A DNA stretch of 64,000 bases from an uncultured Phycisphaerales bacterium (GCA_963844715.1 CAWJPJ010000003.1:39458-103457); one strand, 5' to 3'; positions 3,690-54,741 are shown, numbered from the stretch's first letter. Numbers and translations: made by a program. The notes: generated by a model from the letters alone, not told the origin.

Positions 3690-4528
3690 CTAGGGCCTGT
3701 CTGATGAATCCAAAATCCTGAAATAGCGACGGATCATGGCGAGCTTGGCCATGGCCTGAAAGTTCACCGCCAGTTTCTCGTAACGCGTGCCCAGGCGGCG
3801 ATTCTCCTTCATCCAATTCACGCAACGCTCCACCACGTTCCGTCGGCGATACGCCTTGCGATCAAAGTTCTCCTGCGGCGGCTGATTCGATTTCGCCGGG
3901 ATCACCGCTTGGATTCGGTGGCGACGCAGCCATCGCCGCACATTTCCGTAACTGTATCCCTTGTCGCCCGCCAGCCTCCTGGGGCGACGACGGCGGCGAC
4001 CGATGCGCATCGCGTTCATCACCGGCTCCACGTACCGGCTCTCGTGGCATTGGCCGGCGCTGGCCTCGACGGCGAGCGGAACTCCCTGGCCGTCAGTAAC
4101 CAGGTGGAGCTTGCTGCCCCACCCGCCTCGGCTGCGGCCCAACGCGTGATCCGCCGGTTCTTCCGGGGCGGTTTTGATTTTCTGGCTCCGGCGGCGGATC
4201 GACTGGCTCGCACATTGGTGCCGTCGATGCACCACAGGTCCCAGTCGATTCGTCCTTGCTTGTCCAACCTCATCTGCAGCCGCTGGAGGATTCGATCAAT
4301 CGTTCCGTCCTTTCTCCAGCGGTTGAAGCGGTCGTAGACGCTTTGCCATCTGCCGTAACGTTCGGGCATCTCGCGCCATCGAGCGCCCGAGTGCAGAATC
4401 CAGAACATGCCGTTGAGCGTGGTGCGGTGGTCGTTCCACTGCCCGCCGCGCTTGCCGTTGCCGGGCAGCAGATCGCCGATCAACTCGTACTGCTCATCCG
4501 TGAGCTCATAACGTCGCATCCGTGACAC
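3690..4528 (-). CDS. IS5/IS427 transposase, two overlapping ORFs (4019-4528 and 3690-4235)
   Basis: OrfA has YELTDEQY...LNGMFWILHSGARWREMPERYGRWQSVYDRFNRW...IDGT. OrfB has LGRSRGGWGSKLHL...LAGDKGYS...YRRRNVVERC. Confidence 0.93.
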
Positions 4529-9496: not shown

Positions 9497-10579
9497 ATGT
9501 CGAAAATGAGCGTTTCAGTGAAATCACGAACCGAAAGATCATTGCTTCGGCAGGCCGAAGCCGCAATCCGTACATGCTTGGCCGACATTCCCTTTAGCAA
9601 GATTGATGAGGTCGTTGTCGAACGCGGAACTGACGAGGGCCGCCGTGACCTTGAAATTTCCGCCCGCTTCGGAAAGCTCCGTAAGCGGCTCATCGTCGAA
9701 GCAAAGAGCAGTGGTCAACCGCGCATTGCCCGCCAGGCCGCTACGAATTTACGGCTGCTACGCCAATCCTCTCCATCCATCTACGGTATTTTCGCCGCGC
9801 CGTTCATAACTCCTGAAACCGGTGAGCAACTTGCCGAGCAAAACATCGGCTACGTTGATTTTGCGGGCAACTGTCGGCTCTGTTTCGATTCCGTTTACAT
9901 TCGCCGCGAGGGACAAGCGAATCGTTTCACCGAGAAGCGGGATCTGCGTACATTATATTCACCGTGCGCTGAAAGCGTATTGCGTGTGCTGCTGGGCGAT
10001 CCCAAGCGCTTTTGGAAGGTTCAGGAATTGGCCACCGCCGCCGGCGTCAGCTTGGGGTTGGTCTCAAACGTCAAAGGTTTGCTGGAGGCGCGCGAATGGC
10101 TGGCGTCCGGCGAGGGCGGCATGAAGCTTGCCCAATCTCGAAAGCTTCTCGACGAATGGCGTGGCGTCTATCGGCTCGACCGAAGCCGCCGATTCGATTT
10201 CTTCACCTTGGATTCAATCGCCACTATCGAGCAAAAGCTCGCCGCCGCCTGCAAGCGGCAATCGGCCCGCTATGCGCTGGCGGCATTCTCGGCGGCGGCG
10301 CGATACGCACCGGCTGTCCGTTACCAGCGAGTTTTTGCCTACGTCGATGCTGACGTCGACGCCCTTGCCAAAGCGCTGTCTCTCAAGCCGGTGGACAGTG
10401 GTGCCAATGTGACGTTGATGGAACCGTATGACCAGGGCGTATATCTGGACAGGCGGGAGATCGAGGGCTGTACGATTACTTCACCGCCACAAACCTATTT
10501 GGACCTTTTCAGCCTGCGCGGCCGCGGCGAGGAAGCCGCTGATTTCCTGTTGAATAACGTCATGGAGCCAGCATGGTAG
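9497..10579 (+). CDS. Type IV TA antitoxin, AbiEi family
   Basis: VEAKSSGQPR...GYVDFAGNCRL N-domain, HTH (WKVQELATAAGVSLGLVSNV), C-terminal GANVTL...SPPQTYLDL...RGEEAA. Overlaps the downstream NTase gene. Confidence 0.8.
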   Translation: MSKMSVSVKSRTERSLLRQAEAAIRTCLADIPFSKIDEVVVERGTDEGRRDLEISARFGKLRKRLIVEAKSSGQPRIARQAATNLRLLRQSSPSIYGIFAAPFITPETGEQLAEQNIGYVDFAGNCRLCFDSVYIRREGQANRFTEKRDLRTLYSPCAESVLRVLLGDPKRFWKVQELATAAGVSLGLVSNVKGLLEAREWLASGEGGMKLAQSRKLLDEWRGVYRLDRSRRFDFFTLDSIATIEQKLAAACKRQSARYALAAFSAAARYAPAVRYQRVFAYVDADVDALAKALSLKPVDSGANVTLMEPYDQGVYLDRREIEGCTITSPPQTYLDLFSLRGRGEEAADFLLNNVMEPAW

Positions 10580-11400
10580 GCAGCCGCATCGACTATCCCG
10601 ATCTGGCCACGGAAGCCGCCCGCATGGTGATGCTGGAATTGGTGCGCATCCTGGGCGAATACAAGGATTCCATGGCCATCGTCGGCGGTTGGGTGCCGGA
10701 ACTACTGTTTGCGAACGCCCAGCCCAAACACATCGGCAGCATCGACGTGGATATCGCGCTCGATCATCGCACGATCGATGCCGAGGTATACCGGACGATC
10801 CGCGAACACCTGGCCAGACATGGTTATGAAGAAGGGCCACAGCCGTTCATCTTCTTTCGCACCGTGACCGTCGGCAGCCAAGCGATCAAAGTGCAGGTGG
10901 ATTTCCTGGCGGGCGAATACCAGGGCACAGGCAAAAGCCACCGCCATCAAACTGTGCAAACTTTGAAGGCCCGCAAGGCGCGCGGCAGCGACCTCGTATT
11001 CAAGATGTCCGAGCAGGTCAGAATAGAAGGCCACCTTCCCAGCGGTGCTGCCGATTCAGCCATGGTCAAAGTCGCTGGCATCGTCCCATTCATCGTGATG
11101 AAGGCAATGGCGCTGGCAGACCGCCTCAAGGCCAAGGATGCGTGGGATCTATGGTTCTGCCTGACAAACTTCGCCGGCGGCAATGCGGCGCTGGCCCTCG
11201 CATTCCAGCCCCACCTCCACAATAAGCTGGTGCAAGAAGCTCTGACAAAGATCGCAGACAAATTCCAATCGCCCGCCCATTTCGGCCCCCAAGCCGTGGC
11301 GGATTTCGACGACCTCCCGCCAGGCGACGACCGCGATCTGCGAATCCGAGATGCGTTTGAGCGGGTCGATGATTTGCTCCGCAGGCTTGAGGTTCGGTAG
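10573..11400 (+). CDS. Nucleotidyltransferase toxin, AbiEii-like
   Basis: IVGGWVPELL...HIGSIDVDIAL (GG...DxD) and MKAMALADRLKAKDAWDL. Confidence 0.8.
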   Translation: MVGSRIDYPDLATEAARMVMLELVRILGEYKDSMAIVGGWVPELLFANAQPKHIGSIDVDIALDHRTIDAEVYRTIREHLARHGYEEGPQPFIFFRTVTVGSQAIKVQVDFLAGEYQGTGKSHRHQTVQTLKARKARGSDLVFKMSEQVRIEGHLPSGAADSAMVKVAGIVPFIVMKAMALADRLKAKDAWDLWFCLTNFAGGNAALALAFQPHLHNKLVQEALTKIADKFQSPAHFGPQAVADFDDLPPGDDRDLRIRDAFERVDDLLRRLEVR

Positions 11401-12603: not shown

Positions 12604-13173
12604 ATGCACCGGCGCTTGTCTAAAAATTTATTGCTGCTGTTCGTCGCGTTGGCCATGACCGGTTGCGCCTCCACCCCCAAAGCGCCTTCCGAAAATGGCG
12701 GAATGTTCCGCCGGCGGAATGAAGGCTACAGCCTGCTCTATAAACTGATGAGCGATGAGAGCCAGGTCAGTGGGATATTCATTTTGAAACATGCGGATGA
12801 TTCGGTAGGCAATGTCGTGAGGGACGTCGCCCATTTCTGTCAGTACGCCAAGACCCAGATGGACGGGTTTCCCAACACTGACAACCGCATCGAATACGAT
12901 GTGCCTGATTTACCCAGGATGGAACAGGATTCCCGCGACCTGACCGCCAAGGAAGTTGAACACGAACTGCTCGGCTCGAGCGGAAAAGAATTCGAGCTGA
13001 ATCTGATATTCACGCAGGCCCAGGCGATGGAATATGCCGTGCAGTTAGCCACGGCCCTCCAGCCCATCGAGGACGATCCGGTCCGCCATAATTTCCTGGT
13101 CTACGTCTGCGCAACAATGCGACGAACTTCACAGCCGGCTTATGGCATTGCTCGAAGTGAAACCTTAAATTGA
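12604..13173 (+). CDS. Lipoprotein, hypothetical
   Basis: MHRRLSKNLLLLFVALAMTGC lipobox. The C-terminus is probably frameshifted (alternative end QQCDELHSRLMALLEVKP*). Confidence 0.7.
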   Translation: MHRRLSKNLLLLFVALAMTGCASTPKAPSENGGMFRRRNEGYSLLYKLMSDESQVSGIFILKHADDSVGNVVRDVAHFCQYAKTQMDGFPNTDNRIEYDVPDLPRMEQDSRDLTAKEVEHELLGSSGKEFELNLIFTQAQAMEYAVQLATALQPIEDDPVRHNFLVYVCATMRRTSQPAYGIARSETLN

Positions 13174-13210
13174 CTACCCCCTTGGGCGCGTTAAGATTCC
13201 CGCTACGATC

Positions 13211-13283
<73 letters not shown>

Positions 13284-13326
13284 TTGAAATCTAAGTTCGG
13301 CCAAGCTACCCCACCATCCAAAACGA

Positions 13327-14343
13327 TCAATAAGTTTCATAGGTGAGGGTCGGATTCGCGCGAAAGACGCGATGGATCAGAGCTGTGTAGGCGATGACCA
13401 ATGGCATGCCGAGCAAGGCTATTACCAGCATCACTTCCAGTGTCCGACTACTGGAGGAACTGTTGTAAATCGTGAGGCTGGCGCTTGGGTCATTCAGGCA
13501 GGGAAGAAGGCGGGGGAACAGCCCAATGGCGGCGAGGGTCATCATCAGGCAGATGAGCGCTGAAGAAGCTGCAAACGTCCGGCCGTAATGACCGGATTTT
13601 AAACCGATCGGAATATAGACCGCGGCGCCGATGAGAAGAAGACCGACAGGCCAGGTCAGCGGCCTTGTGTAGATCGACTGGGTCAGGGATGGCGCCCATA
13701 TCAAGGTAGCGCAGGTGACTACCAGAAACATAAATATGGCGACGGCCCAGGAGGAAATTGCCATAGCCGCCAGCCCGAATCGGGCCTGTTCATCGACTTT
13801 TCCGGCCAGATAAATCGCGCCGTGCATGAAGAAGATGGATACGCCGAGTATGCCAACGAGGAGCGCATAAGGATTGAGAAGATCGAAAAACGAACCCGCG
13901 TAGGATCCATCGGTGGTGAAGGCCACGCCGCGGAGAACATTCCCGAACGCCACGCCGAATAGCAAAGCCAGAAGAAAACTGCTGGTTCCGAAGGCGGTAT
14001 CCCAGATTGTTCGCCAGCGCGGGCGATCGACCAATCCGCGGAATTCGATTGAGACGGCGCGAAATATCAGCGCGGCCAGCACGAGCATCAGCGCGAGATA
14101 AAATCCGCTGAAGACGGTTGCGTAGACGATGGGGAATGCGGCAAAGAGCGCGCCGCCGGCGGTCAGGAGCCAGACTTCGTTGCCGTCCCAAACCGGGGCG
14201 ATGGCGTTGATGAAACTTTTGCGGGTCTTGTCATCGCCATGCAGCAGATGGAGCATGCCGACGCCCAGATCGAATCCATCCAGTACGGCATATCCGCCCA
14301 GAAGAACGAAGACAAGAACAAACCAAATGGCGTTGAGGGTCAT
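13327..14343 (-). CDS. cydB: Cytochrome bd quinol oxidase subunit II
   Basis: YAVLDGFDLGVG, PVWDGNEVWL and FRAVSIEFR. ATGA overlap with cydA. Confidence 0.97.
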   Translation of the reverse strand: MTLNAIWFVLVFVLLGGYAVLDGFDLGVGMLHLLHGDDKTRKSFINAIAPVWDGNEVWLLTAGGALFAAFPIVYATVFSGFYLALMLVLAALIFRAVSIEFRGLVDRPRWRTIWDTAFGTSSFLLALLFGVAFGNVLRGVAFTTDGSYAGSFFDLLNPYALLVGILGVSIFFMHGAIYLAGKVDEQARFGLAAMAISSWAVAIFMFLVVTCATLIWAPSLTQSIYTRPLTWPVGLLLIGAAVYIPIGLKSGHYGRTFAASSALICLMMTLAAIGLFPRLLPCLNDPSASLTIYNSSSSSRTLEVMLVIALLGMPLVIAYTALIHRVFRANPTLTYETY

Positions 14344-15728
14344 GCGCGCACCAGATTCCTTTCATCAGAGCCGGTGGCGCTGGGAACGGTCGAGCGAATT
14401 TTGCCGGCCGCCATGTCCGGGCCCTCGCGAATTTTTCTGACCAACAAAAATACATAGAGCGTTCCCAGGATCAGGTAGATAACGCTGAACAATATGATGG
14501 AAAAGAGCACCACTGCGGCCGAGAGGTTTGAGGAATAGGCATCGGCGGTGCGGAACACGCCATAAACGGCCCAGGGTTGGCGACCGATTTCAGCGGCCAT
14601 CCAGCCGAGCTCGCAAGCCGCAAGCGGGAGAGGGATCGAAATCACCAGGAGCCGAAGGAATCGAGGGCTGTCGAACAGCCTCCCGCGCGCCAGTTTAATC
14701 GTGCCCCACACCATCACGACGATAAAATAGAGCCCCAAAACCACCATATTGTGGAACGAAACGAAAGTCATCCAAAGAGGAGGAATATCAGCGGCGGGAA
14801 ATTCGTTGATGCCTTTGATCTTGGCGTTAACGTTGCCGAAGGCCATCCAACTCAATAGCCCCGGCACCTCGGCGGTGTCCTTGAGCGTTGGAGGCTTGGT
14901 GAAGGGAACGGCAAACATGACCAGCGGCGCGGCGTTTTGACTGGTGTAAAGTCCTTCAATTGCCGCGAATTTGGCCGGCTGGGTGTGTGCGACCTGCTTG
15001 GCGTGCATGTGTCCGAACGGAAAGACCTCCATCACGCTGACGATGACTCCGAAAGTAATCGCCAGCTTGAGCGTATAGCGTCCGACCACATTAGCGCGAT
15101 CTTTCAGCAATACCGCCGCCGAAACCCCGGCCATGAAAAACGCTCCCGTAACGAAGGCGGCGAACATCGTGTGAAAGAAGCGGGGCCACATTGAAGGGTT
15201 GAACACGGCCGCATAAAAGCTGGTCAGCTCGGCGCGCCCGTTGTGGATGACGTAACCAGCCGGGGTCTGCATCCAGGAGTTGGCCGCCAAAATCCAGAAC
15301 GCCGAAAGCGTTGATCCGAACGCGACCATCAGGATCGCCACGAAATGCCATTTCTTGGCGATTCGGTCGCGGCCGAACAGATAAAGTCCCAAAAATCCAC
15401 TTTCGAGAAAGAAGGCGAAGACTCCCTCGGCGGCAAGCGGCGCCCCGAAGATATCGCCCACGAATTTGGAATATCGCGACCAGTTGGTCCCAAACTGAAA
15501 TTCCATTGGAATGCCGGTTGCGACGCCGACAACGAAAGTCAGCGCCAGCAGCTTTCCGAAGAAGCGTCCCGCCGCGTCGGCGACCGGGTCGTTGCGTCTC
15601 CAGGCGCGCCATTCCACGATCACCAGCAGCCACGCCAACCCGATGCTGATGGGCGGAAAAAGGAAATGGAATGCGGCGGTCAGGGCGAATTGAATTCTGC
15701 AGAGCGTTCCGACATCCAACCCATTCAT
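14340..15728 (-). CDS. cydA: Cytochrome bd quinol oxidase subunit I
   Basis: QFALTAAFHFLF, MEFQFGTNWS, EGVFAFFLES, ANSWMQTP, QPAKFAAIEG and GWMAAEIGRQPW. Confidence 0.97.
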   Translation of the reverse strand: MNGLDVGTLCRIQFALTAAFHFLFPPISIGLAWLLVIVEWRAWRRNDPVADAAGRFFGKLLALTFVVGVATGIPMEFQFGTNWSRYSKFVGDIFGAPLAAEGVFAFFLESGFLGLYLFGRDRIAKKWHFVAILMVAFGSTLSAFWILAANSWMQTPAGYVIHNGRAELTSFYAAVFNPSMWPRFFHTMFAAFVTGAFFMAGVSAAVLLKDRANVVGRYTLKLAITFGVIVSVMEVFPFGHMHAKQVAHTQPAKFAAIEGLYTSQNAAPLVMFAVPFTKPPTLKDTAEVPGLLSWMAFGNVNAKIKGINEFPAADIPPLWMTFVSFHNMVVLGLYFIVVMVWGTIKLARGRLFDSPRFLRLLVISIPLPLAACELGWMAAEIGRQPWAVYGVFRTADAYSSNLSAAVVLFSIILFSVIYLILGTLYVFLLVRKIREGPDMAAGKIRSTVPSATGSDERNLVRA

Positions 15729-15744
15729 TGTTCAGTTCCTTTAT

Positions 15745-16189
15745 TAATTTCCGGAATTCCCATGAACGCCCAGTTGTCCTAGCGCAAATGACCGAACGCG
15801 CGCAATCAGACTGTGGAGTTGCGATTGGCCCCGGATTGGAAAGCGAGACGATATGCTCGCAGATCGCCAATGCTTCGGAAATCAGGTGCAAATTGGGTAT
15901 GGATATTGGCGTGGATTGGTCATGAGAAGTCTCCGCCGCCGAGTCGCAAAGCATCTTGAGAACAAATTCCTCATATCCGGCGGGGGGCTTGGCGTGGTGC
16001 CGTTCTAGAAACCGGCCCAATCGCGGCAGTTGACGGAACAGCGCAGGCGCCTTCGCACGAGTGCGGCGCGATATACTGAAATGGATCGCCGGACGATGAG
16101 ACGGGACGGCATTGCGAGCAAACCTGTGCCCGCAAGCCCAGTTTCATCCATCCCGTTGAAAACGATTTGTTCACGATAGTCGCCTTCAC
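15745..16189 (-). CDS. Cys-rich hypothetical protein (frameshifted; boundaries approximate)
   Basis: RAQVCSQC...HSCEGAC continues in another frame as LPRLGRFLERHH...KMLCD...LAICEHIV. Fills the gap between the hypB-like gene and cydA. Confidence 0.45.
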
Positions 16190-16201
16190 TCGTTTGGGTC
16201 A

Positions 16202-16915
16202 CTATCCGATAAACTGTTCCGTTGATTCGTCACGAGAATCGCCTCGTGGCCTGATCTGCGCCTTGGCGGTGCGCATGTGGTCAAGCCAGTCGAGCCAGAA
16301 GTGGATGCCCGCCCCGGTCGTTGATGAAATTTCGAAAACATCCGCGGAGGGATTGAATCCGCGAACATCCCTGCGGAAGATTTCCTGGTCGAATCTGACC
16401 AGGGGGAACAAATCAATTTTCGTCAGAAGAATCGCCGAGGCGCTGCTCAGGAGCGTGTGGTATTCGGCGGCCTTATCGTCGCCGCCGCTGACGGCAAAGA
16501 CGGCGGCTGTCGCGTCCTGGCCCAGATCCAGCAGGTTGGCCAAACCTCCGGCGGCCTCGATCAAAAGGGTGTCGAAATCTTGCAGCTTGAGTTCGGACAG
16601 AGCGCGCCAGATGGAAGCGGCGTCGGGAACGGCGGCGTCGACGTGCGCGACATGGCCGCAGAGTTTCTGCAACCGCGCGGCGTCGCGATCCGAAGCGGGG
16701 TTGACCACGATTACCGCCACCCGCTTGGGCGCCGGCAGGCTGTTCAAGGCCGCCTCAATCAGCGCCGTTTTGCCGGAGCCGGGATGTCCGATGATGCGGA
16801 TTCCCAGGACGTTTGCCTGTTTCAATGCTTTGCGAATCAGCGCGGCGGGCGGGGGTCGGCCGACGTTTCGTTCTTCCGCGGCGCTGCCGACTTTGCTTTG
16901 AGTGAATTGCGTCAT
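16202..16915 (-). CDS. HypB-like P-loop GTPase lacking metal-binding Cys/His
   Basis: GHPGSGKT, LIEAAGG..LLDLGQ, GGDDKAAEY and LLTKIDL. No GCH and no ENVGNLxCP. Confidence 0.8.
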   Translation of the reverse strand: MTQFTQSKVGSAAEERNVGRPPPAALIRKALKQANVLGIRIIGHPGSGKTALIEAALNSLPAPKRVAVIVVNPASDRDAARLQKLCGHVAHVDAAVPDAASIWRALSELKLQDFDTLLIEAAGGLANLLDLGQDATAAVFAVSGGDDKAAEYHTLLSSASAILLTKIDLFPLVRFDQEIFRRDVRGFNPSADVFEISSTTGAGIHFWLDWLDHMRTAKAQIRPRGDSRDESTEQFIG

Positions 16916-16922
16916 GGTGCAC

Positions 16923-17621
16923 CTACCGTTTGGGGATATGAATGAACGGATCAAACATGCGAGGTGATCGATTGTGGGAATGATTGGGCGACACATGCGA
17001 TTCCACCCACTCGGCCCAGAGGTCTATGCCCTTATCGGAGGCAACGGACGACTGGATGACCGGCATTTTGGGTTTAATGCGCAAGACGTCCTGGATGAAC
17101 ACGTTCAAATCAAATTTCACCAGAGGAAGCAGGTCGATTTTGTTGAGAATGACCAGGTCGGATCCGGCGACGAGGAATGGATATTCCGTGGCCTTATCGT
17201 CACCCCCGGCGACGCTGAAGACGGAGGCGCGGAAATGCTGGCCAAGATCGAATTCCACGGGACTATAGGAACTGCCTTCGGATTCGATCAGCAGCAGGTC
17301 AAGTTCGCTGAGATTCAATTGAGTCAGCGCCTGGCGGACATTGATGGCGGCGAGGCTATCGGTAACCAGCGGGATCACCTTGCAGCGATGGCGGGCGATG
17401 CGCTGGACCTGCCGTTCGGCGGCGAGTTCGGCGACGATGGCGGCGGTGCGAATTCGCGGATTCAACCGCGACAGCAGCGCCTCAGTCAGCGCGGTTTTTC
17501 CCGAACCTGCCGGACCGACCAGACTGATGGCAACCACGCCCGCGGCGGTCAATCTCGCGCGGTTCTCGCGGGCGATTGGATCGTTGAGATCAAATCTGGT
17601 TTTCAAGGTTACCGTGTCCAT
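16923..17621 (-). CDS. Second HypB-like P-loop GTPase lacking metal-binding Cys/His
   Basis: ARENRARL...GPAGSGKT, LIESEGSSYSPVEFDLG, GGDDKATEYP and ILNKIDL. No GCH and no CP cysteine. Confidence 0.82.
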   Translation of the reverse strand: MDTVTLKTRFDLNDPIARENRARLTAAGVVAISLVGPAGSGKTALTEALLSRLNPRIRTAAIVAELAAERQVQRIARHRCKVIPLVTDSLAAINVRQALTQLNLSELDLLLIESEGSSYSPVEFDLGQHFRASVFSVAGGDDKATEYPFLVAGSDLVILNKIDLLPLVKFDLNVFIQDVLRIKPKMPVIQSSVASDKGIDLWAEWVESHVSPNHSHNRSPRMFDPFIHIPKR

Positions 17622-17637
17622 AATTCCACCTGCTGCA

Positions 17638-18078
17638 TTACGACTGCTGATGCGGCCCCTGCGGCGCTCGGTCAATCTCTTTCCGCAACTGATTGTGCCG
17701 GGTCAGCGTCGCGCGGTCGTTCCATAAAACGAGCGAGCAAATGATGAGCATCCAGATCGGCAGCGTCGGCAGGGCAAGCTCCGGTCGGGTCAACGCAAGT
17801 ATCGCGCCCGACAACAGCGCGGAGATTCCAATTCCGAAGCGGACCATGCGTCCAATACGAAAACGACGAGCGCGCATCTCCGACTCGACGGAAAAACGCG
17901 GCGCTTCACTTTCGAGTCTCCTGTCTGTTCCAAACAGAGCCTTCCGATTCGAAGCCGATCGCCAAACTCTCGTCCGATGACGTCCTTGGCGCGATCGACG
18001 CAGCGAAACAAAGTGCGCAAAGCGATCGTCCCGTTTATCGGAATCAATCGAGTCTGATGCTGTCGTGTCGCTTCGCAT
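17638..18078 (-). CDS. Small membrane protein (2 predicted TM segments)
   Basis: FGIGISALLSGAILAL and LPIWMLIICSLVLW. Tightly packed between pckG and the hypB-like gene. Confidence 0.55.
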   Translation of the reverse strand: MRSDTTASDSIDSDKRDDRFAHFVSLRRSRQGRHRTRVWRSASNRKALFGTDRRLESEAPRFSVESEMRARRFRIGRMVRFGIGISALLSGAILALTRPELALPTLPIWMLIICSLVLWNDRATLTRHNQLRKEIDRAPQGPHQQS

Positions 18079-18096
18079 AAGTCTCTCTTGCAAGGC

Positions 18097-19902
18097 TCAC
18101 AGCCGGCTGACCAGCAACTCCTTCTGGAAGATCATTTCCTTCGGCAAATCGCCGGCCAGTTTCAGGAACAATTCCTCCTGTCCGAGGATTTCCGCTTTGA
18201 AAGTCTCGAGATCGACCTTCTGCACGGCATCAAAATCGGCTTGCGAGATGTTCAACCCTTCCAGGTCGATATCCCCGCCGCGCGGCATCCAACCCAGCGG
18301 CGTCTCCACCGCGTACGCGCGGCCGTTGCAGCGGTCGATGATCCATTTGAGGATGCGGACGTTTTCGCCGTAGCCGGGCCAGACGAATTCGCCCTTGTCG
18401 TTCTTTCTAAACCAATTGACATGGAAGATGCGCGGGCAATCCGTCATCTTCTTCCGCATGCGGAACCAGTGGACGAGATAGTCGCGAATGTTGTAGCCAA
18501 TGAACGGGAGCATGGCCATCGGGTCGCGGCGAACAACTCCGACCTGCCCGCCGGCGGCGGCGGTCGTTTCGCTTCCCAGAGTCGCGCCGACGTAAACACC
18601 GTGCATCCAGTTGAAGGCCTGGAAAACCAGGGGAAGCGTTTTGGCGCGGCGTCCGCCGAAGATGATGGCGGAAATCTCGACGCCGTTGGGGTCGTCCGCC
18701 GCCTGATCCAGCGCCGGATTGTTAATCATCGGTGCGGTAAACCTGCTATTAGGATGGGCGGCCTTGGACCCCGAGGCGGGCGTCCAAGGCTTGCCCATCC
18801 AGTCGAGGCACTGTGCGGGCGCCTCGGCCGTCTTCCCCTCCCACCAGACGTCATTATCCGGGAGCAGCGCGACGTTCGTGAAGATCGTGTCGTGGCTCAT
18901 GCACGCGATGGCGTTGGGATTGGTCTTCTCGTTCGTTCCCGGCACTACGCCGAAATAACCCGCCTCCGGGTTGATGGCCCGCAGCCGGCCGGTCTTTTCG
19001 TCAACCCACATCCAGGCGATGTCGTCGCCGATCGTGGTCACCTTCCATCCCGCCTCGCGATATTTTTTCGGGGGAATCAGCATGGCAAAATTCGTTTTCC
19101 CGCAAGCGCTGGGGAAGGCCGCGGCAACGTAGGTTTTTTTGCCCTGGACGCTCACGCCGCTGATCAGCATGTGCTCGGCCATCCAGCCCTGTTGCTGGCC
19201 GAGAAAGCTGGCAATTCGCAGCGCCAGGCATTTCTTGCCCAGCAGCGCATTGCCGCCGTAACCGCTGCCGAAGCTCCAGACCGTGTTATCCAGCGGAAAA
19301 TGGCAGATAAAGCGCCGCTGCGGGTCGCATTCGCCGACGCTGTGCAGGCATCGCGTGAAGTCTTCGCTTTCGCCAAGCTGTTTCCACGCCACGTTGCCCA
19401 TGCGGGTCATGATCCCCATGTTCACCGCCACGTAGACGGAGTCGGTCAGTTGAATCCCGACCTTGGCCAGCGGCGAACCGATCGGTCCCATGACGAACGG
19501 GATGACGTACATCGTTCGTCCCTTCATGCAGCCGTTGAACAAACCCTTGAGTTTTCCGTACGCGGCCCTGGGTTCCATCCAATTGTTGGTCGGTCCGCAC
19601 ATGTCCTGGCTGGGTGTGCAGATGAAGGTGCATTGTTCGGTTCGCGCGACGTCATTGGGGTTGCTGCGATGCAAATAGCAGCCCGGACGCTTCTCCTGAT
19701 TGAGCGGGATCAGCACGCCTTCGCGAACGCCTTGCTCGATCAATTCCCGCCTGTCGCTCGCGCTGCCGTTGCAGACATGAATTTTGTCAGGCTGGCAAAG
19801 GGCGACGCATTCATCGATCCACTGCTGAACATTCGACGGTTCAGCCGGCGCGGATTTTCTATCGCGAGCCTTGCGAACGGGGGGTGCTGTGAGGACTGCC
19901 AT
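18097..19902 (-). CDS. pckG: Phosphoenolpyruvate carboxykinase (GTP)
   Basis: [52 protein letters not shown] and [10 protein letters not shown]. Confidence 0.97.
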
Positions 19903-19997
19903 AACGATTTCCTTCGCTAAGCCGGATTTCATTTCCGGCGGGTAAATATTGACGCCTTCAAATCCGGGCCGAAGATGTCCGATCAAGGAGCGTTGTC

Positions 19998-20506
19998 ATG
20001 CAGACATCCGATCTGTCCAAAGTCGTCAGTTCCGCGGTGGTTCCGGTTGTTATCATTTCATCCTGCGGGCTTTTGGCCCTGGCTTTTTACAATCGCATGG
20101 CCGCGATCGTGTCGCGGCTGCGCGCTTTTCAGCGCGAACGCCTGCTCGAACTGGAGCGCATCGCAAATTCCAAATCGCAGTATGGGCCTCGGCTGCTGGA
20201 ACATCTCGAACTGCAAACCGCCCACGTCAAACGCCGGGCTAAACTCATTCGGCTGACGCTGCTGTTTCTGCTGCTGACTATCGGGCTTCTCATCGGATGC
20301 TGCCTGATGCTCGGGCTGTCCGCTCTGGTGCCCCAGACGCTGTACCTGGCGGATCCTCTTTTTGTTCTCGGGCTGCTCTCGATGCTCTGCAGCACCATCG
20401 CGGCCGCGCTGGAGCTGCGCTTCGCTGGAGCCGGTCGAACTGGAAAGCCAGTTCGTCACCGATGTTCTCAATGAATCGGCCCATCGCGATGCTGACGCGG
20501 CGTAAG
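19998..20506 (+). CDS. DUF2721-like membrane protein (3' end frameshifted)
   Basis: SAVVPVVIISSCGLL..AFYNRMAAIVSRLR...RRAKLIR followed by two TM segments. Confidence 0.65.
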
Positions 20507-20509
20507 CGT

Positions 20510-21394
20510 TCATGACAGCTCCTGCGCCACGGCATGATTGGACGGTTCGGGCAAGCCGAGCATGTCCACAATTCTTGCGGCGGTTTCTTCGATCGCCTGA
20601 TCGGTCACGTCCAACACCGGACAATGCAATTTCGCAAAGACCTGGCGGCACCATTCGATTTCCCTGGCGACTTCGCGAGGTTCGTTGTAGCCGGTCTGAT
20701 TCATTCGCCAGGCCGTCTGCCGGCGCGTGCGGATCTCGGCAAGCTGGCCGGGATCGATCACCAATCCGACGATCTTTTTCGGATTCAACACCAGCAATTC
20801 CTTCGGCGGGGCGACCGCGATGGCCAGTGAGACATTGGCGACGCGAAATCCCTGCATCGCCAGGAAGATGCTCGTCGGGGTTTTTCCCGTCCGGGAAACT
20901 CCCGCCAGCACCACGTCGGCTTGGCCGAGACTGTCCAGCCCAAGCCCATCATCGTGTTCCAGCGTAAACGTCATCGCGTTGATGCGCCCGCAGTAGGCGT
21001 TGTCAACCCGGTGCAATCTCTGCGGGTCGGATTTTGAATCCAGGGCGGCCGCCTTGGCGAGAAATTCCACGGCCGATCCGGTCAAGTCCCAACAGGGAAT
21101 TCCCAGTGCAATGCATCGCTCGGCAATTTGTTTTTTGAGCGCGGGCGAGACAACCGCGTGAAACACAATTCCCGGTCGGGTGGATAACGCGTCCAGCGAC
21201 TCGTCGATGCGGGCTGGCTCGCTGATAAACGGGCGAGTCACGACCTCAAACGATCCGGCCGGGAATTGAGTGAGAAAGCTGGTCACCATGTGGCGAGCCA
21301 GATTTCCCGTCGAGTCGGAGAACACGTACAAAGGAGTTGCGCGTCGCGTCCGGATGGAACGCTTCGGCGCCGGGTTGTTTCGGACTTTCGTCAT
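20510..21394 (-). CDS. PEP synthase/PPDK regulatory kinase-pyrophosphorylase (DUF299)
   Basis: YVFSDSTG, RINAMTFTLEHDDG, ADVVLAGVSRTGKTPTS and DVTDQAIEETA. Confidence 0.92.
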   Translation of the reverse strand: MTKVRNNPAPKRSIRTRRATPLYVFSDSTGNLARHMVTSFLTQFPAGSFEVVTRPFISEPARIDESLDALSTRPGIVFHAVVSPALKKQIAERCIALGIPCWDLTGSAVEFLAKAAALDSKSDPQRLHRVDNAYCGRINAMTFTLEHDDGLGLDSLGQADVVLAGVSRTGKTPTSIFLAMQGFRVANVSLAIAVAPPKELLVLNPKKIVGLVIDPGQLAEIRTRRQTAWRMNQTGYNEPREVAREIEWCRQVFAKLHCPVLDVTDQAIEETAARIVDMLGLPEPSNHAVAQELS

Positions 21395-21458
21395 AAGCTA
21401 CTGACATCATCGAATCTTTGTTGCCGCGGGAAAATCGGTGCTTGCCCGCCTTCGGGCA

Positions 21459-21476
21459 TAGGGGAATTTGCTGATG
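21459..21476. promoter_or_regulatory. Putative operator TAGGGGAATTTGCTGATG
   Basis: 17/18 identical to 35782-35799. Both lie in divergent intergenic regions, 30 bp after a GGARAATCGGWG box. Confidence 0.6.
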
Positions 21477-21601
21477 GGAGATGCAAAGAATATCGGCCGC
21501 CGATGGGGCGGCGAAAATGCACTTATGCTTTCAAAATCGAAAGATGCTCTCGCGGTGCGAAGGGATTGGTCTATCTCCCGAATCGCGATTACAACTGCGG
21601 G

Positions 21602-23392
21602 ATGGGCCGCAAGCCAAAAGCCGCGACGATCCCTCCCGAGGTTGATTTTCTTTACGCGTTTCGCTTGTCCAAAAATGGCAAATCCGCCTGCGATTGGACT
21701 GCCGGGCCGTTCACGCAGATTACGGGGTATCCGGCAGATACGCTGAAAAAACGCGGTTGGGAAGACCTGATCTATCCCAAGGACAAACCGCTGCTCAAGG
21801 ACCGTCCGGCCGTGCTGCTTTCCGGCAATGGCGATGTGCGCGAGTATCGGCTGATCGCCGCCGATGGCCGGTTGAAATGGGTTCGCGATTTTGCCCAGCC
21901 GATCCGGACCGAATCGGACGGCAAGCTCTTTGTCATCGCCGCGGTTCAGGAAATCACCGCCGCCAGAAGATCGCGCGAGGAAATGAATCGCCTGGCCTCC
22001 ATCGTCGAATATTCCCAGGATGCGATCATGGACCTGACGCTGGACGGCGTGATCGTGAGTTGGAACCGCGCGGCCGAACGGATGTACGGATACTCCGTCG
22101 AGGAAGTGAAAGGCCGCACCGCCACGCTGCTGGTTCCGGCCGACCGAATGGACGAAACGACGCGCATCTTCTCGGCTGTTCGGCGGGACGGGGCGGTCAC
22201 CCGATTGGAAACGATCCGCATCCGCAAGGATAAAACCTTGATACCCGTGGCGCTCACCGCCGGGCCGGTGCATGATGCGGCCGGGCAACTGATCGGCATC
22301 TCCACCATCAGCCGGGATATTTCGCAACTGAAGAACGCTGAATCGGCGCTAGAGGAATCCGCCGGAAAAACCGCCGCGATTCTTACGACCATGGTGGATG
22401 GCGTGATGACCATCGATGAGCACGGCACGATCGACTCGATCAACCCAGCCGCCGAGCGATTGTTCGGATATTCCTCCTCCGAAGTCCTCGGCCGCAACGT
22501 TAAAATGCTCATGCCGGAGCCATATCACTCGGAGCATGATGAATACCTGGTCAACTATCTGCGCACGGGCATGGCGAAGATCATCGGCATCGGCCGCGAG
22601 GTCGTTGGAAAACGAAAGAACGGTTCCACATTTCCAATGGACCTGGCTGTCAGCGAAGTTCTCATCGGCCGGCGCCGCTTGTTCACCGGCATCGTGCGCG
22701 ATCTCACCGACCGCAAGCGCCTCGAACGGCAAATCCTGGAAATCAGCGACCGCGAACAGCGGCGGATCGGCCAGGATTTACATGATGGCCTCGGCCAGCA
22801 ACTGGCCGGGATCGGATTCCTCAGCAAATCGCTGGAGCAGCGCCTCGGCAAAAAAAAGATCAAGGAATCCACCGATGCCCGGCAGATTGCCGAGCTGGTC
22901 TCTTCGGCCATTGCCCAGGCGCGCGGCATGGCCCACGGACTTCATCCCGTCGACCTGGCCGCAACGGGATTGATGTCCGCCCTGAAAGAACTGGCCGCGA
23001 CGGTCGAAAATACATTCCGCATCCCCTGCACGTTCAAATGTGAAAAACCGGTCCTGTTGTCGGACAATTCCGTCGGCACGCATCTTTATCGCATCACCCA
23101 GGAAGCGGTGAACAACGCGATCAAACACGGAAAAGCCCGGCACGTCTGGATTGTCCTGATCCACACTCGCGATACAATCACCGTGTCGGTTCGGGACGAC
23201 GGCATCGGTTTTCCCGAGGTTCTGCCGGAGAAAAAGGGAATAGGATTGCAAACCATGCGATATCGCGCCACGCTGATCGGCGCGACGCTGTCGATCCTGC
23301 GGCTCCCGACCGGCGGGACGCGCGTTGATTGCGCTCTGCGCGATGTCGACACGATTCTTGAGGATGAGGCCCATGGCAAAAGCGGCGAGTAA
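21602..23392 (+). CDS. Multi-PAS sensor histidine kinase (FixL-like heme PAS + HisKA_3 + HATPase)
   Basis: Third PAS is LMPEPYHSEHDEYLVNYLRTGMAKIIGIGREVVGKRKNGSTFPM. H-box EQRRIGQDLHDGLGQQL, then QEAVNNAIKH, DDGIG and GIGLQTMRYR. Confidence 0.92.
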   Translation: MGRKPKAATIPPEVDFLYAFRLSKNGKSACDWTAGPFTQITGYPADTLKKRGWEDLIYPKDKPLLKDRPAVLLSGNGDVREYRLIAADGRLKWVRDFAQPIRTESDGKLFVIAAVQEITAARRSREEMNRLASIVEYSQDAIMDLTLDGVIVSWNRAAERMYGYSVEEVKGRTATLLVPADRMDETTRIFSAVRRDGAVTRLETIRIRKDKTLIPVALTAGPVHDAAGQLIGISTISRDISQLKNAESALEESAGKTAAILTTMVDGVMTIDEHGTIDSINPAAERLFGYSSSEVLGRNVKMLMPEPYHSEHDEYLVNYLRTGMAKIIGIGREVVGKRKNGSTFPMDLAVSEVLIGRRRLFTGIVRDLTDRKRLERQILEISDREQRRIGQDLHDGLGQQLAGIGFLSKSLEQRLGKKKIKESTDARQIAELVSSAIAQARGMAHGLHPVDLAATGLMSALKELAATVENTFRIPCTFKCEKPVLLSDNSVGTHLYRITQEAVNNAIKHGKARHVWIVLIHTRDTITVSVRDDGIGFPEVLPEKKGIGLQTMRYRATLIGATLSILRLPTGGTRVDCALRDVDTILEDEAHGKSGE

Positions 23393-24053
23393 ATCTGCCG
23401 GCAACAAACACCGGATTTTCCTGGTGGACGATCATCCCGTGCTGCGGCAGGGGATGGGCCGGTTGATCGACGATCAACCCGACATGATGGTCTGCGGCGA
23501 AGCCGAATCCCCGCCCGATGCCATTCGCCTGCTGGCCGCCGCCAAGGCGGATGCGGCCATCGTCGACCTGACCCTCAAAGGCGGCGACGGGCTGGAACTG
23601 TGCAAACAAATCCGCGACCGCTGGAAGGATCTGCCGATCCTGGTTGTTTCGATGCACGATGAATCGCTGTATGCCGAACGGGCGCTCAAAGCCGGCGCCC
23701 GCGGCTACATCATGAAACAGGAGCCGCAGGAAACGGTGATGAACGCCATCCGCACGGTGGTGAAAGGGCAGGTTTATCTCAGTGGGGCAATGTCCGCCAA
23801 ATTATTACAGAGTTTTTCGGGGCCGCGCTCCGCCGCCGACCTTCCGCCGCTGGCCCGGCTGACCGATCGCGAACTGGAAATTTTCCGCCTGATCGGCGCG
23901 GGGCAAAGCGTGCGGGCCATTGCGGAGAAACTTTTCCTGAGCACGAAAACCGTCGAGGCGCATAAAGAGCACATTAAGCAGAAGCTGAATTTGAAGAGCA
24001 GCAATGAACTGCTGCAATATGCAATCGAGGCGCGGGTGACGGATAGGGAATAG
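23373..24053 (+). CDS. NarL/LuxR-family response regulator
   Basis: IFLVDDHP, AIVDL, VVSMH, GYIMK and C-terminal LTDRELEIFRLIG...IAEKLFLSTKTVEAHKEHIKQKL. Confidence 0.95.
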   Translation: MAKAASKSAGNKHRIFLVDDHPVLRQGMGRLIDDQPDMMVCGEAESPPDAIRLLAAAKADAAIVDLTLKGGDGLELCKQIRDRWKDLPILVVSMHDESLYAERALKAGARGYIMKQEPQETVMNAIRTVVKGQVYLSGAMSAKLLQSFSGPRSAADLPPLARLTDRELEIFRLIGAGQSVRAIAEKLFLSTKTVEAHKEHIKQKLNLKSSNELLQYAIEARVTDRE

Positions 24054-25361: not shown

Positions 25362-26774
25362 TCACGATTGGATTAGTGTTCGCAAACTTTTCGTGTTGCG
25401 ATAAAGTCTGGATGGTTGTTGTGTTACGAGATTTGCAGGGCATGTTACAGTTTGCCGGCGACGAAATGTGTAACATGGCGGGCTCAACGGTGTTTTTCGG
25501 CGAATTCGCGAGGATGACAGGATGACAAGTTCTGCCGCATTGAGAGCGCAGTTTTGTGAAAGTTGCGATGCGGGATTCGCGAAATGCGATTTTTGCCACA
25601 GATTGAAATCAGATGCACGCGGATGGAAATTAAATCTTGTACTCTTTGATTTATCCCAAGTTGAGGGATGAGCGGTCAGTTTGGGAAGTGACCCCTTTTT
25701 GACCTCAGATGCATGCGGATGGAAATTGAATCTCGGATTCTGTGATTCATCCCAAGTTGAGGGATGAGCGGTCAATTTGGGAAGTGACCTGCTCTGTCTC
25801 GACCCTTTCGGCCTCAGGATCATGAGGTTGTGAGTGAGAGTTTTGAGAGCCATGTCTCGTTTGCGGCTCCAGGCGGTTTTGCCACGCAGGGATGAACCCA
25901 GATTCCGTTTCATCATCGAATTCACCGTTTCCACCTGCCAGCGCCGCGTGTAGCCGCATTTTCGACGCGATGTTTTTGTGTGCAGCAGCCGCATCATGTG
26001 CCGCCGCCACCGACCGCCCGGCGGCTGTTTCCGAGGTCGGGGCCGGCCGATCTTCGGCGGAATGATCGAACGCAGACCCATGTCCTGTCGAGCCAGTTCA
26101 TGGATTTCCTCCGAATCATAGCCCGCATCCGCGACCACCGTGAACCGCCGATAGGGCACGCGCCGCCACGCATCGAACACCAGCGGCTCAAAATGCGGAT
26201 GATCGGCACCGGCGCCCGTGCCGGTCCACAATGACAACGCCAGATGACAATGGCTCGCCACGCCCACCGCCAGCTTGGGCATCCGTCGGACCGTCTGGGC
26301 GCGCGTGCGGGAACGGCCTTTTTCCGCGTCTTTGGCGCGCATCCGCTGGCGGGTTTGATGGCATCGCCGTTCGTAGTGGCGGCTGACGTGGTGCGATTCG
26401 TAACAGGTGCTGTCCAACGCCAACGGCTTGGTCGACAGTTTCAAGATGCGCGCCAACGCCGCCCATCGCACCATCACGTCCAACATTCGGTCCACCCGGA
26501 ACTTTTGCAGCAGGACCTTGGCCGCCCGGCAGAGCGTGTTGTGATCCGGCGTGCGCGTCAGTCCGATATCGCGCCGCCAGGATTTGCAGTCTTCCAGCAA
26601 GGCCTCGACGCCGCGATAGCTTCGTTTCATCTGCTCCTTGAGAACGAGGCAACAGAACAACTGTGGGAGCGTGAAATCGTGACGCGAGAACTTGCAGGAA
26701 TAATCGGGAAAACACTGGCAGGCCAGATGATAGGCGGCCCGCATCACCTTCCGTGGCGATTTGCACGTGAGCAT
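25362..26774 (-). CDS. DDE transposase; ORF reads through the IS end into flanking DNA
   Basis: PDHNTLCR, LALDSTCY, VVADAGYDSE and YTRRWQVETVNSMMKR. No stop before the IR at 25789. Confidence 0.88.
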   Translation of the reverse strand: MLTCKSPRKVMRAAYHLACQCFPDYSCKFSRHDFTLPQLFCCLVLKEQMKRSYRGVEALLEDCKSWRRDIGLTRTPDHNTLCRAAKVLLQKFRVDRMLDVMVRWAALARILKLSTKPLALDSTCYESHHVSRHYERRCHQTRQRMRAKDAEKGRSRTRAQTVRRMPKLAVGVASHCHLALSLWTGTGAGADHPHFEPLVFDAWRRVPYRRFTVVADAGYDSEEIHELARQDMGLRSIIPPKIGRPRPRKQPPGGRWRRHMMRLLHTKTSRRKCGYTRRWQVETVNSMMKRNLGSSLRGKTAWSRKRDMALKTLTHNLMILRPKGSRQSRSLPKLTAHPSTWDESQNPRFNFHPHASEVKKGSLPKLTAHPSTWDKSKSTRFNFHPRASDFNLWQKSHFANPASQLSQNCALNAAELVILSSSRIRRKTPLSPPCYTFRRRQTVTCPANLVTQQPSRLYRNTKSLRTLIQS

Positions 26775-54370: not shown

Positions 54371-54741
54371 GCTATCAATTGCCGAGGGTATTTTGAATCT
54401 GGCTCGCCGAAACGTGCCGTACGGGCGCCGTGTTGCTGTCCGTACGCGTCAACGCGGGTCCGATGCGCGGGATCGATCCGCGGTGCATGGAGCTCGCCTG
54501 GACTGCATTGGGCCGATCGGACGTGTCTTTGAAACTAACCGTCCTTCCCTGGCGGATGCAATGCGGCGAATGCGGCCGGCAGTGGGAACAAGCGGAACTA
54601 GCCGAACGATGCGCCTGCGGATCCTCGCGGGTGCGCCCGATCGGAGGGGATGAATTGCAGTTGCTTTCCATCGAAGTGGATGATGCCGAAGAAATTGACA
54701 GGAGGCGATCATGTTTGTGCAAGTTGTCGAAAACGTACTGA
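54363..54741 (+). CDS. hypA: Hydrogenase nickel chaperone (frameshift ~54425)
   Basis: MHELSIAEGI, CGECG...CACGS...GGDELQLLSIEV. Confidence 0.9.

Follow-up and report, generated by a model that had tools for sequence, protein, structure and literature searches.

What are two HypB-like GTPases without the metal ligands of HypB doing in a gene row that runs from a phosphoenolpyruvate carboxykinase (PEPCK) gene to the genes of a cytochrome bd oxidase? The question is raised by a stretch of DNA from an uncultured Phycisphaerales bacterium (GCA_963844715.1, CAWJPJ010000003.1:39458–103457), 64,000 nucleotides (nt) long and called the window below, whose close homologs carry the name Tepidisphaeraceae. 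Seven consecutive open reading frames (ORFs) occupy the minus strand at 13327–19986 – pckG, an orphan ORF, the two GTPase genes (products HblA and HblB), the gene of a cysteine-rich protein (Cys4), cydA and cydB (Table 1) – and the count of seven same-strand genes in an earlier note on this DNA is borne out. From that note's gene list pckG, the HypB-like pair and cydAB stand, but its 'membrane ORF' is not a module gene and its 72-residue Cys-rich ORF is not a whole gene. The answer favored here, with some reservation and from comparative sequence evidence, is that HblA, HblB and Cys4 may well be a functional, lineage-restricted GTPase module derived from HypB, standing outside hydrogenase maturation and repurposed within a low-oxygen regulon.

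HblA and HblB are clear relatives of HypB. HblA scores above the cut-off of the HypB equivalog model TIGR00073 and HblB narrowly below it (151.2 and 118.7 bits against 121.2), and both pass PF02492 (48 and 41.5 bits, cut-off 20.7). The nearest solved structure is M. jannaschii HypB 2HF8 for HblA (E 5e-35), and HypB 2WSM and 2HF8 for HblB. Aligned to the canonical HypB of the window and to solved HypB structures, both proteins have the complete G3E motif set (G1 GxxGxGK[ST], G3 ExxG, G4 [NT]KxD) – HblA reads GPAGSGKT in the P-loop, ESEG at Walker B and NKID at G4, and HblB reads GHPGSGKT, EAAG and TKID – and both keep FDLG or LDLG and GGDDK. The Cys-His of GKGCH and the Cys of ENVGNLICP, present in the canonical HypB, are gone from both. 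HblA has TDS-LAA at the GKGCH position and SSYSP at the NLICP position; HblB has AAVPDA at the first ligand site and a two-residue deletion after Walker B in the second region. The kept P-loop, DLG, GGDDK and (N/T)KxD motifs and the loss of the ligands had both been reported in the earlier note, and the alignments agree with it.

All GTPase-type HypBs are said in a 2026 paper (PMC13202556) to have a CH-X30-34-C site at the dimer interface. Since this site is missing, HblA and HblB are HypB relatives without what is there called a universal feature, the defining one of HypB. In switch I, HblB keeps RDAxR and HblA has RQVxR. Public contigs differ from the window in HblB at 16270 and 16530, giving T216A and L129P, which could be strain variants or further consensus errors. 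Proteins of this ligand-less kind are labeled 'hydrogenase nickel incorporation protein HypB' in public annotation, a name that is probably wrong.

The loss of the metal site extends well beyond the window. Among the 120 best HblA matches listed, about 59 clusters are ligand-less and of the HblA type, with the signatures TD-NLxA, E[SA][ED]GNAxSP and GGDDKATEYP; six further clusters lack the ligands in other ways, and the remainder are canonical. The CH...C site is also missing from all 16 HblB-type genes of related loci, which have the signatures VNPAxxRDAxR, AVPD, IExxGG with the two-residue deletion, and VSGGDDKA. The ratio of non-synonymous to synonymous substitution rates (dN/dS; Nei-Gojobori method, pairs with dS<1) is 0.06–0.24 for HblA, 0.14–0.26 for HblB and 0.13–0.34 for the Cys4 gene, and HblA and HblB are under purifying selection. 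Conservation and dN/dS were among the checks called for in the earlier note, which took a dN/dS near 1 and a lack of conserved pairs as the mark of decaying duplicates; all three genes are far below 1, and conserved pairs are described below.

In a maximum-likelihood tree of 74 sequences, rooted by midpoint only, the ligand-less proteins all fall on one side of a 99/91 branch, away from the canonical HypBs. The HblA clade (100/99) and the HblB clade (97/86) both lie inside a 97/97 group, and their internal groupings broadly match. This topology fits a single loss of the metal site, then a duplication. A third ligand-less HypB clade (P0060, P0066, P0070, P0071, P0081), which keeps ENVGTL and NTG and has lost the Cys-His and the Cys, is sister to HblA plus HblB in the same tree.

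The gene that follows the pair is longer than it appears. The 72-residue ORF at 15971–16189 encodes just the first ca. 48 residues of a protein of ca. 140 amino acids. Orthologs (genomes G019, G413 and G030, and metagenome contigs) encode ca. 120–150 amino acids, and the middle and C-terminal parts of Cys4 can be read in the two other frames of the window. Because the ortholog reading continues in those frames, the window appears to have lost 2 nt near 16040 and gained 1 nt near 15795. Logan contigs from four public runs and two studies carry exactly the two frame-restoring differences: an extra GC behind 16040 in contigs X1, X2 and X6 (X5 does not bridge 16040), and one base fewer at 15795 in X1, X5 and X6 (X2 does not cover 15795). 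X1 is possibly from the sample behind the window assembly; X2, X5 and X6 are from another study. As these short-read contigs restore the frame at both sites, the Cys4 gene is intact in the natural population, and the restored gene ends ca. 15 nt before the cydA ATG. The Cys-rich CxxC/CxxxC ORF seen beside the pair in the earlier note is thus part of a real four-Cys gene, of which the 72 residues are only the N-terminus, broken by two assembly indels.

A profile search of 1.84 billion representatives found 142 representative clusters of the Cys4 family, mostly of 100–150 amino acids. Across 133 representatives, the four Cys of the pattern CxxC...CExxC are 97–99% conserved, Arg15, Cys19, Cys22, Cys40, Glu41, Cys44 and Phe47 are 91–99% conserved, and an LPxL motif is 81–92% conserved. 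No Pfam family covers the conserved region in the 142 representatives. The AlphaFold2 model, from an alignment of 14 sequences, is predicted to be all-helical (predicted local distance difference test, pLDDT, 75). Searches with the model or the sequence found no relative: Foldseek gave no match in PDB at E <= 0.001, the best PDB profile match had an E of 0.034 and nothing meaningful, a search of the ESM Atlas gave nothing above background, and the best result of a wide VIA-align search (Z 7.1, archaeal virus helical proteins) was inside the background for helical models. One protein, P0248 (365 residues), is a natural fusion of a universal stress protein (Usp) domain at residues 2–151 with a Cys4 domain at residues 258–340.

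Two identities were considered for Cys4 and rejected. It is not HypA – neither the G019 ortholog nor the family representatives match PF01155, the N-termini read MELQV... or MDTTV..., with no N-terminal MHE nickel site, and the cysteines are arranged as CxxC...CExxC and not as the two CxxC zinc motifs of HypA. The lone PF01155 signal in the family is a sub-threshold 16.6 bits in an atypical protein of 283 residues, P0174. A WhiB-like identity was dropped on the different order of the cysteines and the lack of a Pfam match.

In the window the module genes are tightly packed. The HblA ATG at 17621 is 16 nt past the stop of the orphan ORF, the HblB ATG at 16915 is 7 nt past the HblA stop, the Cys4 gene starts with a GTG at 16189, 12 nt past the HblB stop, and cydA and cydB overlap by 4 nt. 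The pckG ORF opens with a TTG at 19986; by alignment with orthologs, its true start is probably near 19902.

This order was compared across 17 HblA loci. Two are from the window's own assembly (the window and a further copy on contig C1), five from genomes G001, G019, G036, G386 and G413, two from G289 and G451, which branch deeply, and eight from metagenome contigs. The metagenome contigs came from a search with an HblA-specific DNA pattern, which found 11; three of these are the G036, G019 and G001 loci again and were counted once. HblB is directly downstream of HblA in 13 of the 17 loci (three are without it, and one is at a contig end), pckG is directly upstream in 11 (five are without it, and one is at a contig end), and the Cys4 gene directly follows HblB in 10. 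The complete HblA-HblB-Cys4 trio is present in at least ten loci from several Tepidisphaeraceae genera. With selection, conserved ligand loss and adjacency together, the claim of a repurposed pair derived from a HypB-type G3E GTPase, rather than decaying duplicates, holds. In the G289 locus L192 (G289:C34, 26100–46099), pckG, a basal HblA-like gene and cydAB are in a row, and a Cys4 gene lies beside another HypB-like gene ca. 5 kb further on. As the Cys4 gene and the second HypB-like gene are ca. 5 kb from the HblA-like one, the trio also exists in a split arrangement.

A second comparison set ligand-less loci against canonical HypB loci. It was made up of HypB-like matches to an HblB query (E <= 1e-30) in 121 genomes of the family, other than those on G005:C41, plus the loci already collected; flanks of at most 10 kb, or to the contig end, were included on both sides. 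Loci were classed by the Walker-B/Cys motif, and four fragments in which no Walker B could be recognized were set aside; for L163 the CH motif decided the class, and L039 counts as ligand-less despite a spurious CH in an ORF extension. The two classes have different neighbors. Canonical loci (28) have hypA within 10 kb in 26 cases, the [NiFe] hydrogenase large subunit in 21 and hypE in 15, while each of these was found in one of the 29 ligand-less loci. A canonical HypB is also encoded at the sole ligand-less locus that has hypA and the hydrogenase.

Other genes take their place. Members of the Cys4 family are encoded within 10 kb at 17 of the 29 ligand-less loci and at none of the 28 canonical ones. 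The same contrast was found for pckG (12/29 and 0/28), a kinase like the window's (17/29 and 1/28), a LuxR-type response regulator (16/29 and 0/28), a P1B ATPase (8/29 and 0/28), an iron-sulfur (FeS) protein (6/29 and 0/28), cydA (5/29 and 0/28) and Usp (4/29 and 0/28), and a DUF2721 gene is beside the module in 7 of the 29. These counts are a pattern and not a statistical test, since the loci are related and part of them were found by the HblA-specific pattern. The link between the pair and the Cys-rich protein that the earlier note had drawn is thus strengthened by synteny, and its suggestion of an action on hydrogenase assembly runs against the near absence of hypA and the large subunit. 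Its specific link to cytochrome bd is weak: cydA is near few ligand-less loci, an Hbl gene is beside only five of 19 loci of CydA orthologs (>=55% identity), and in G036, G019 and G001 the cyd and Hbl gene sets are both kept but unlinked.

The kinase, the response regulator and pckG are the most constant neighbors of ligand-less loci, a point absent from the earlier note. The third PAS domain of the window kinase (residues ca. 346–505) matches the solved FixL heme domains 8JS5, 1D06 and 1DP6 with E values of 8e-35 to 4e-33, and its ...EHDEY... stretch aligns with ...RHDSY... of FixL, whose His we take to be the heme ligand. By these matches the kinase carries a FixL-type heme-PAS domain; its true start is probably near 21599. 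The response regulator has its best NCBIfam scores with NarL/MctR-type proteins. Distant HblB-like genes have FixO, CcoG, a DsbD-type protein, Usp, an SPC-motif P1B ATPase, a DtxR-type repressor and an IscA-type protein as neighbors, and the window also encodes PFOR, a Hox-type hydrogenase with hyp genes, a Pat-like acetyl-CoA synthetase/GNAT protein and PpsR. The region looks like a low-oxygen energy-metabolism island with the module as a constant member. A block of ca. 60 nt in the DUF2721-pckG intergenic region (19903–19997), which includes ...GCTCCTT...ACATCTTC...CGTCAAC..., is conserved in five loci and may be a shared regulatory site.

The genes after the module differ from locus to locus. 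cydAB follows it in the window, G413, G030 and G289, and the order in G400 is cydAB-HblB. In G019 and L071 the module is followed by a P1B ATPase with a TPCP motif and then by a Tat-signal 4Fe-4S protein and an NrfD-type subunit. An FeS protein follows in L068, L072 and L074, directly or behind a baeRF-family ORF, and Rieske/cytochrome b genes follow in G036 and in the C1 copy. The baeRF family 12 / 'Host_attach' gene lies between Cys4 and the FeS-NrfD genes at L072 3842–4309 and L074 11579–12046. The P1B ATPases near the module in L039 (5821–7737, G036), L041 (6488–8794, G019) and L106 (7910–9988, G436) are without N-terminal metal-binding domains; the motif in the transmembrane region is TPCP in two of them and SPC in one. 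TPCP and SPC subtypes of P1B ATPases are linked to Ni/Fe and Co/Fe transport, not to Cu.

The module is so far found almost only in Tepidisphaeraceae (Planctomycetota), including soil and bog planctomycetes. Of 401 genomes sampled from the class, 5 have HblA orthologs (E <= 1e-52), each of them a member of the window's family, and HblB orthologs or HblB-like genes are in ca. 12 of the 121 family genomes. Cys4 genes were found in 19 of the 121 genomes of the bacterial family and, across the phylum, in 2 of 401, the latter with limited sensitivity because 10 candidates were scored per genome. An alignment-based HblA scan of genome contigs gave, among the matches listed, relatives of 28–39% identity over the length of HypB and three short matches to the P-loop only.

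The role of the module is probably new, because the metal site has been lost and the setting is one of oxygen-sensor, PEPCK and respiratory genes instead of hydrogenase genes. The dimer, docking, cargo, client and regulation proposed here would work as follows. After the Ni/Zn site of the G domain was lost from a HypB ancestor and the gene duplicated, the module would have come to be expressed as one tight operon, as its gene packing suggests, usually after pckG and before a quinol-oxidizing respiratory module – cytochrome bd in the window, and elsewhere an FeS-NrfD complex, Rieske/cytochrome b or, in the same place, a P1B-type ATPase. The GTPases would form a GTP-dependent, HypB-like dimer with an interface free of metal, A/B where both exist. 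Cys4 would dock as an adaptor or supply a thiolate site for Zn, Fe or an Fe-S cluster, and GTP hydrolysis would gate the hand-over to, or the protection of, a client in low-oxygen energy metabolism. A more specific version of this is possible but doubtful: an HblA/HblB heterodimer with metal or cluster binding moved to the Cys4 subunit, placed under the FixL-type sensor and serving an Fe, heme or Fe-S client, would be a fifth type of G3E GTPase. Its candidate clients are cytochrome bd, another quinol-oxidizing complex and GTP-PEPCK, which it might load, repair or gate. The switch-I asymmetry of HblA and HblB would, as a speculation, suit a heterodimer of one catalytic and one regulatory subunit.

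Several points weigh against the module as proposed. No single client stands out, because the downstream neighbors vary. The three genes are separable – G001 and G036 have HblA without HblB, still selected (omega, or dN/dS, 0.20 for that pair), G386 has the HblA-HblB pair with no detectable Cys4 gene, and in several genera an HblB-like gene occurs, in some cases accompanied by a Cys4-like gene and in others not – and the two genomes that have HblA but no HblB speak against an obligate heterodimer. The loss of the switch-I Asp in HblA (RDAxR to RQVxR) could reduce catalysis. Nearly all loci are from one bacterial family, so the locus counts are not independent and the shared synteny is in part shared ancestry.

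The constancy of the two-component genes also allows another role, an unlikely one in our view, in which one or both GTPases and Cys4 are a signaling accessory within the FixL-type pathway and mature no enzyme; Cys4 could then be a redox, Fe-S or metal sensor and the GTPase a switch on the kinase or the regulator. In the most divergent loci the HblB-like gene abuts the kinase and regulator genes (L103 reads histidine kinase, response regulator, HblB', Cys4', and L100, L104 and L105 are similar), Usp occurs both as a neighbor and fused to Cys4, and the small all-helical model of Cys4 would be compatible with a sensor. Adjacency fits a maturation or protection module equally well, however, since two-component genes often adjoin the operons they regulate, and the characterized G3E subfamilies in a review (PMC9164220) are all maturation factors. 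In the window, moreover, the module is packed in an operon with metabolic and respiratory genes, ca. 3.5 kb from the kinase. The position of pckG could point to a factor dedicated to PEPCK: HblA, alone or together with its partners, would load or protect the divalent metal of GTP-PEPCK or be coupled to the GTP turnover of that enzyme. pckG has the same orientation where it is immediately upstream, with gaps of 15–27 nt, and the deep-branching HblA' of G289 is also in the order pckG-HblA'-cydAB. This is somewhat less likely still: five of the 17 HblA loci and most loci with only an HblB-like gene have no adjacent pckG, contig C6 of the same assembly carries a second pckG that is intact and lacks an Hbl neighbor, and we know of no PEPCK that needs a chaperone.

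Homology to HypB would agree with a persisting role in nickel or hydrogenase metabolism, with HblA and HblB as auxiliary HypB isoforms that use the metal site of another protein. Canonical hyp and Hox genes are 30–40 kb away on the same contig in G000 (the window's assembly), G001, G019 and G386, and a TPCP P1B ATPase, of a subtype linked to Ni/Fe transport, follows the module in relatives. Such a role is very unlikely – the CH-X30-34-C site, as described in PMC13202556, is missing, hydrogenase genes are near just one ligand-less locus, and every Hbl-carrying genome checked also has a canonical HypB. Least credible of all, to the point of being nearly dismissed, are decaying duplicates or annotation noise. 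The frameshifted Cys-rich gene in the window, the copy of the region on contig C1 that is riddled with stops and the sub-threshold HypB score of HblB might be taken as signs of decay, but the dN/dS of all three genes is far below 1, the motifs are conserved in the ca. 59 clusters of the listed matches, and the two frameshifts of the window are errors of assembly that contigs of two studies correct.

Hbl is a HypB-derived G3E GTPase system with a new partner family, and it can be set beside several known systems. It has the G3E G domain of HypB (its best solved relatives are HypB 2HF8, 2WSM and 4LPS) with the GGDDK and FDLG motifs, and a small Cys-bearing gene adjoins the pair as hypA adjoins hypB. 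It differs from HypB in the missing CH-X30-34-C site (PMC13202556), in being two diverged tandem paralogs and in not lying beside hyp or hydrogenase genes (hypA in 1/29 loci against 26/28), and its partner Cys4, unrelated to HypA and all-helical in the model, has neither the HypA Pfam match nor the MHE N-terminus. MeaB, a G3E GTPase without a cofactor site of its own that gates delivery by another protein (PMC9164220), is, with MMAA, a chaperone of B12-dependent mutases and offers the nearest parallel to the possible working of a HypB relative without ligands. The only Pfam match to MeaB is at the level of the P-loop (HblB residues 60–105, 23.6 bits), and no mutase or B12 genes are among the Pfam-scanned neighbors of the module. 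With UreG and COG0523 (CobW/ZigA/ZNG1/Nha3), Hbl has in common the superfamily and the logic of a nucleotide-gated GTPase with accessory proteins. Identity with UreG was rejected on TIGR00101 scores of 58.2 bits for HblA and 28 bits for HblB against a cut-off of 204.2, and identity with COG0523 on the lack of a CPH or CxCC motif and on the end of both proteins soon after the G domain.

FixLJ regulons (fixNOQP/fixGHIS, cyd) resemble the locus in the FixL-type heme-PAS kinase, and cytochrome bd, FixO, CcoG, P1B ATPases and Usp are also among the neighbors of Hbl loci. They differ in that the regulator here is NarL/MctR-like by its best NCBIfam score; control of the module by this kinase and regulator would be a proposal from position. 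To our knowledge, neither a G3E GTPase nor a Cys4 protein has been described in a FixLJ regulon. The review lists four G3E subfamilies – UreG, HypB, MeaB and COG0523 (PMC9164220) – and a full-text literature search, judged on titles and the beginnings of abstracts, found no ligand-less HypB relatives, no such gene trio and no G3E GTPase tied to cytochrome bd or PEPCK. To that extent the statement in the earlier note that no such system had been described agrees with the literature. According to PMC13202556, methanogens carry another HypB homolog that is UreG-like and has no known function, so that unexplained HypB relatives were already recognized there; this is a different case from Hbl.

The coordinates of the features are collected in Table 1.

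Table 1. Genes of the Hbl locus and comparison features, with positions counted from the first nucleotide of the window
Feature	Position	Strand	Evidence or remark
cydB, cytochrome bd oxidase subunit II	13327–14343	-	PF02322 313.4 bits; TIGR00203
cydA, cytochrome bd oxidase subunit I	14340–15728	-	PF01654 525.7 bits
Cys4 protein gene (working name HblC)	15744–16189	-	ca. 140 amino acids; ortholog alignments
HblB, HypB-derived G3E GTPase, 237 amino acids	16202–16915	-	TIGR00073 118.7 bits
HblA, HypB-derived G3E GTPase, 232 amino acids	16923–17621	-	TIGR00073 151.2 bits
Orphan ORF ('membrane ORF'), 151 amino acids	17638–18093	-	no family match
pckG, GTP-dependent PEP carboxykinase	18097–19986	-	NF003253 864.6 bits (cut-off 504); PF00821, PF17297
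DUF2721 membrane protein	19998–20474	+	PF11026; divergent from pckG
FixL-type sensor histidine kinase	21266–23392	+	Pfam: PAS x3-4, HisKA_3, HATPase
NarL/FixJ-type response regulator	23325–24053	+	PF00072 receiver + PF00196 LuxR helix-turn-helix
Canonical hypA	54430–54741	+	PF01155; comparison only, outside module
Canonical hypB	54711–55466	+	PF02492; GKGCH and ENVGNLICP present; comparison only
Hox-type [NiFe] hydrogenase	adjoins canonical hypA/hypB		window context
tRNA gene	13211–13283	+	Rfam 70.9 bits; just downstream of cydB

The orphan ORF, the 'membrane ORF' that the earlier note had counted in the operon, should be removed from it. It has no family match in Pfam/NCBIfam-type scans and no homolog among 5.8 billion protein clusters, and all related loci lack it, with ca. 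15–27 nt separating pckG from HblA. Its codon-position GC signal is weak, with a third-position GC content (GC3) of 0.61 against 0.67–0.77 in the neighbors. The genome has no further copy of it, and neither terminal repeats of note nor a plasmid match was found for the stretch. The 475 bp between pckG and HblA are most likely a lineage-specific spacer and not part of the module. An Rfam scan of 13000–21500 found nothing beyond the tRNA gene, and promoter and terminator scans were not above the shuffled expectation. The FNR/FixK-box consensus has a single one-mismatch match, in the spacer at 18034–18047, which is meaningless with 2.1 expected by chance. A DUF1559/prepilin gene, typical of Planctomycetota, is also in the window.

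The assembly has 8 contigs and a completeness of 85%. Several other genes of the window are split – an H+-pyrophosphatase in two, a type ISP restriction-modification enzyme in three and a biotin carboxylase in pieces (33141–35689; 27705–31964; 15–959). With two verified consensus indels at 15795 and 16040, these splits are probably assembly errors and not pseudogenes, and the split genes and the completeness make further consensus indels likely. The assembly is error-prone, and strain mixing may be involved. Contig C1 holds a divergent second copy of the region (L042, 28000–40000, 50–85% identity) in the order kinase, ppsR, DUF2721, pckG, HblA, HblB, Cys4, Rieske/cytochrome b, with many stops and frameshifts in most genes; it may derive from a related strain, as a contig of low coverage that was binned here, or be a decayed duplication. 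Contig C6 holds a third pckG, intact, 78% identical and without an Hbl neighbor, and a hypA-hypB pair that is 80% identical to the window's and has one in-frame TGA (626339–628111 and 1252490–1253405). An AbiEi/AbiEii toxin-antitoxin pair and two DDE transposase genes flank the region in the window (9497–11400; 3690–4235; 25362–26774), which suggests local rearrangement.

G3E GTPases are the standard nucleotide-driven metallochaperones. Here a clade of them has lost a 'universal' HypB feature, been duplicated, gained an unannotated four-Cys partner family and moved from hydrogenase genes to a neighborhood of oxygen-sensor, PEPCK and respiratory genes. The 'HypB' annotation of these proteins would inflate the hydrogenase-maturation capacity inferred for soil and peat planctomycetes. 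If the module is indeed a maturation or protection factor for low-oxygen respiration or PEPCK, it would give the G3E family a new class of client, and the orphan Cys4 family of 142 clusters a function.

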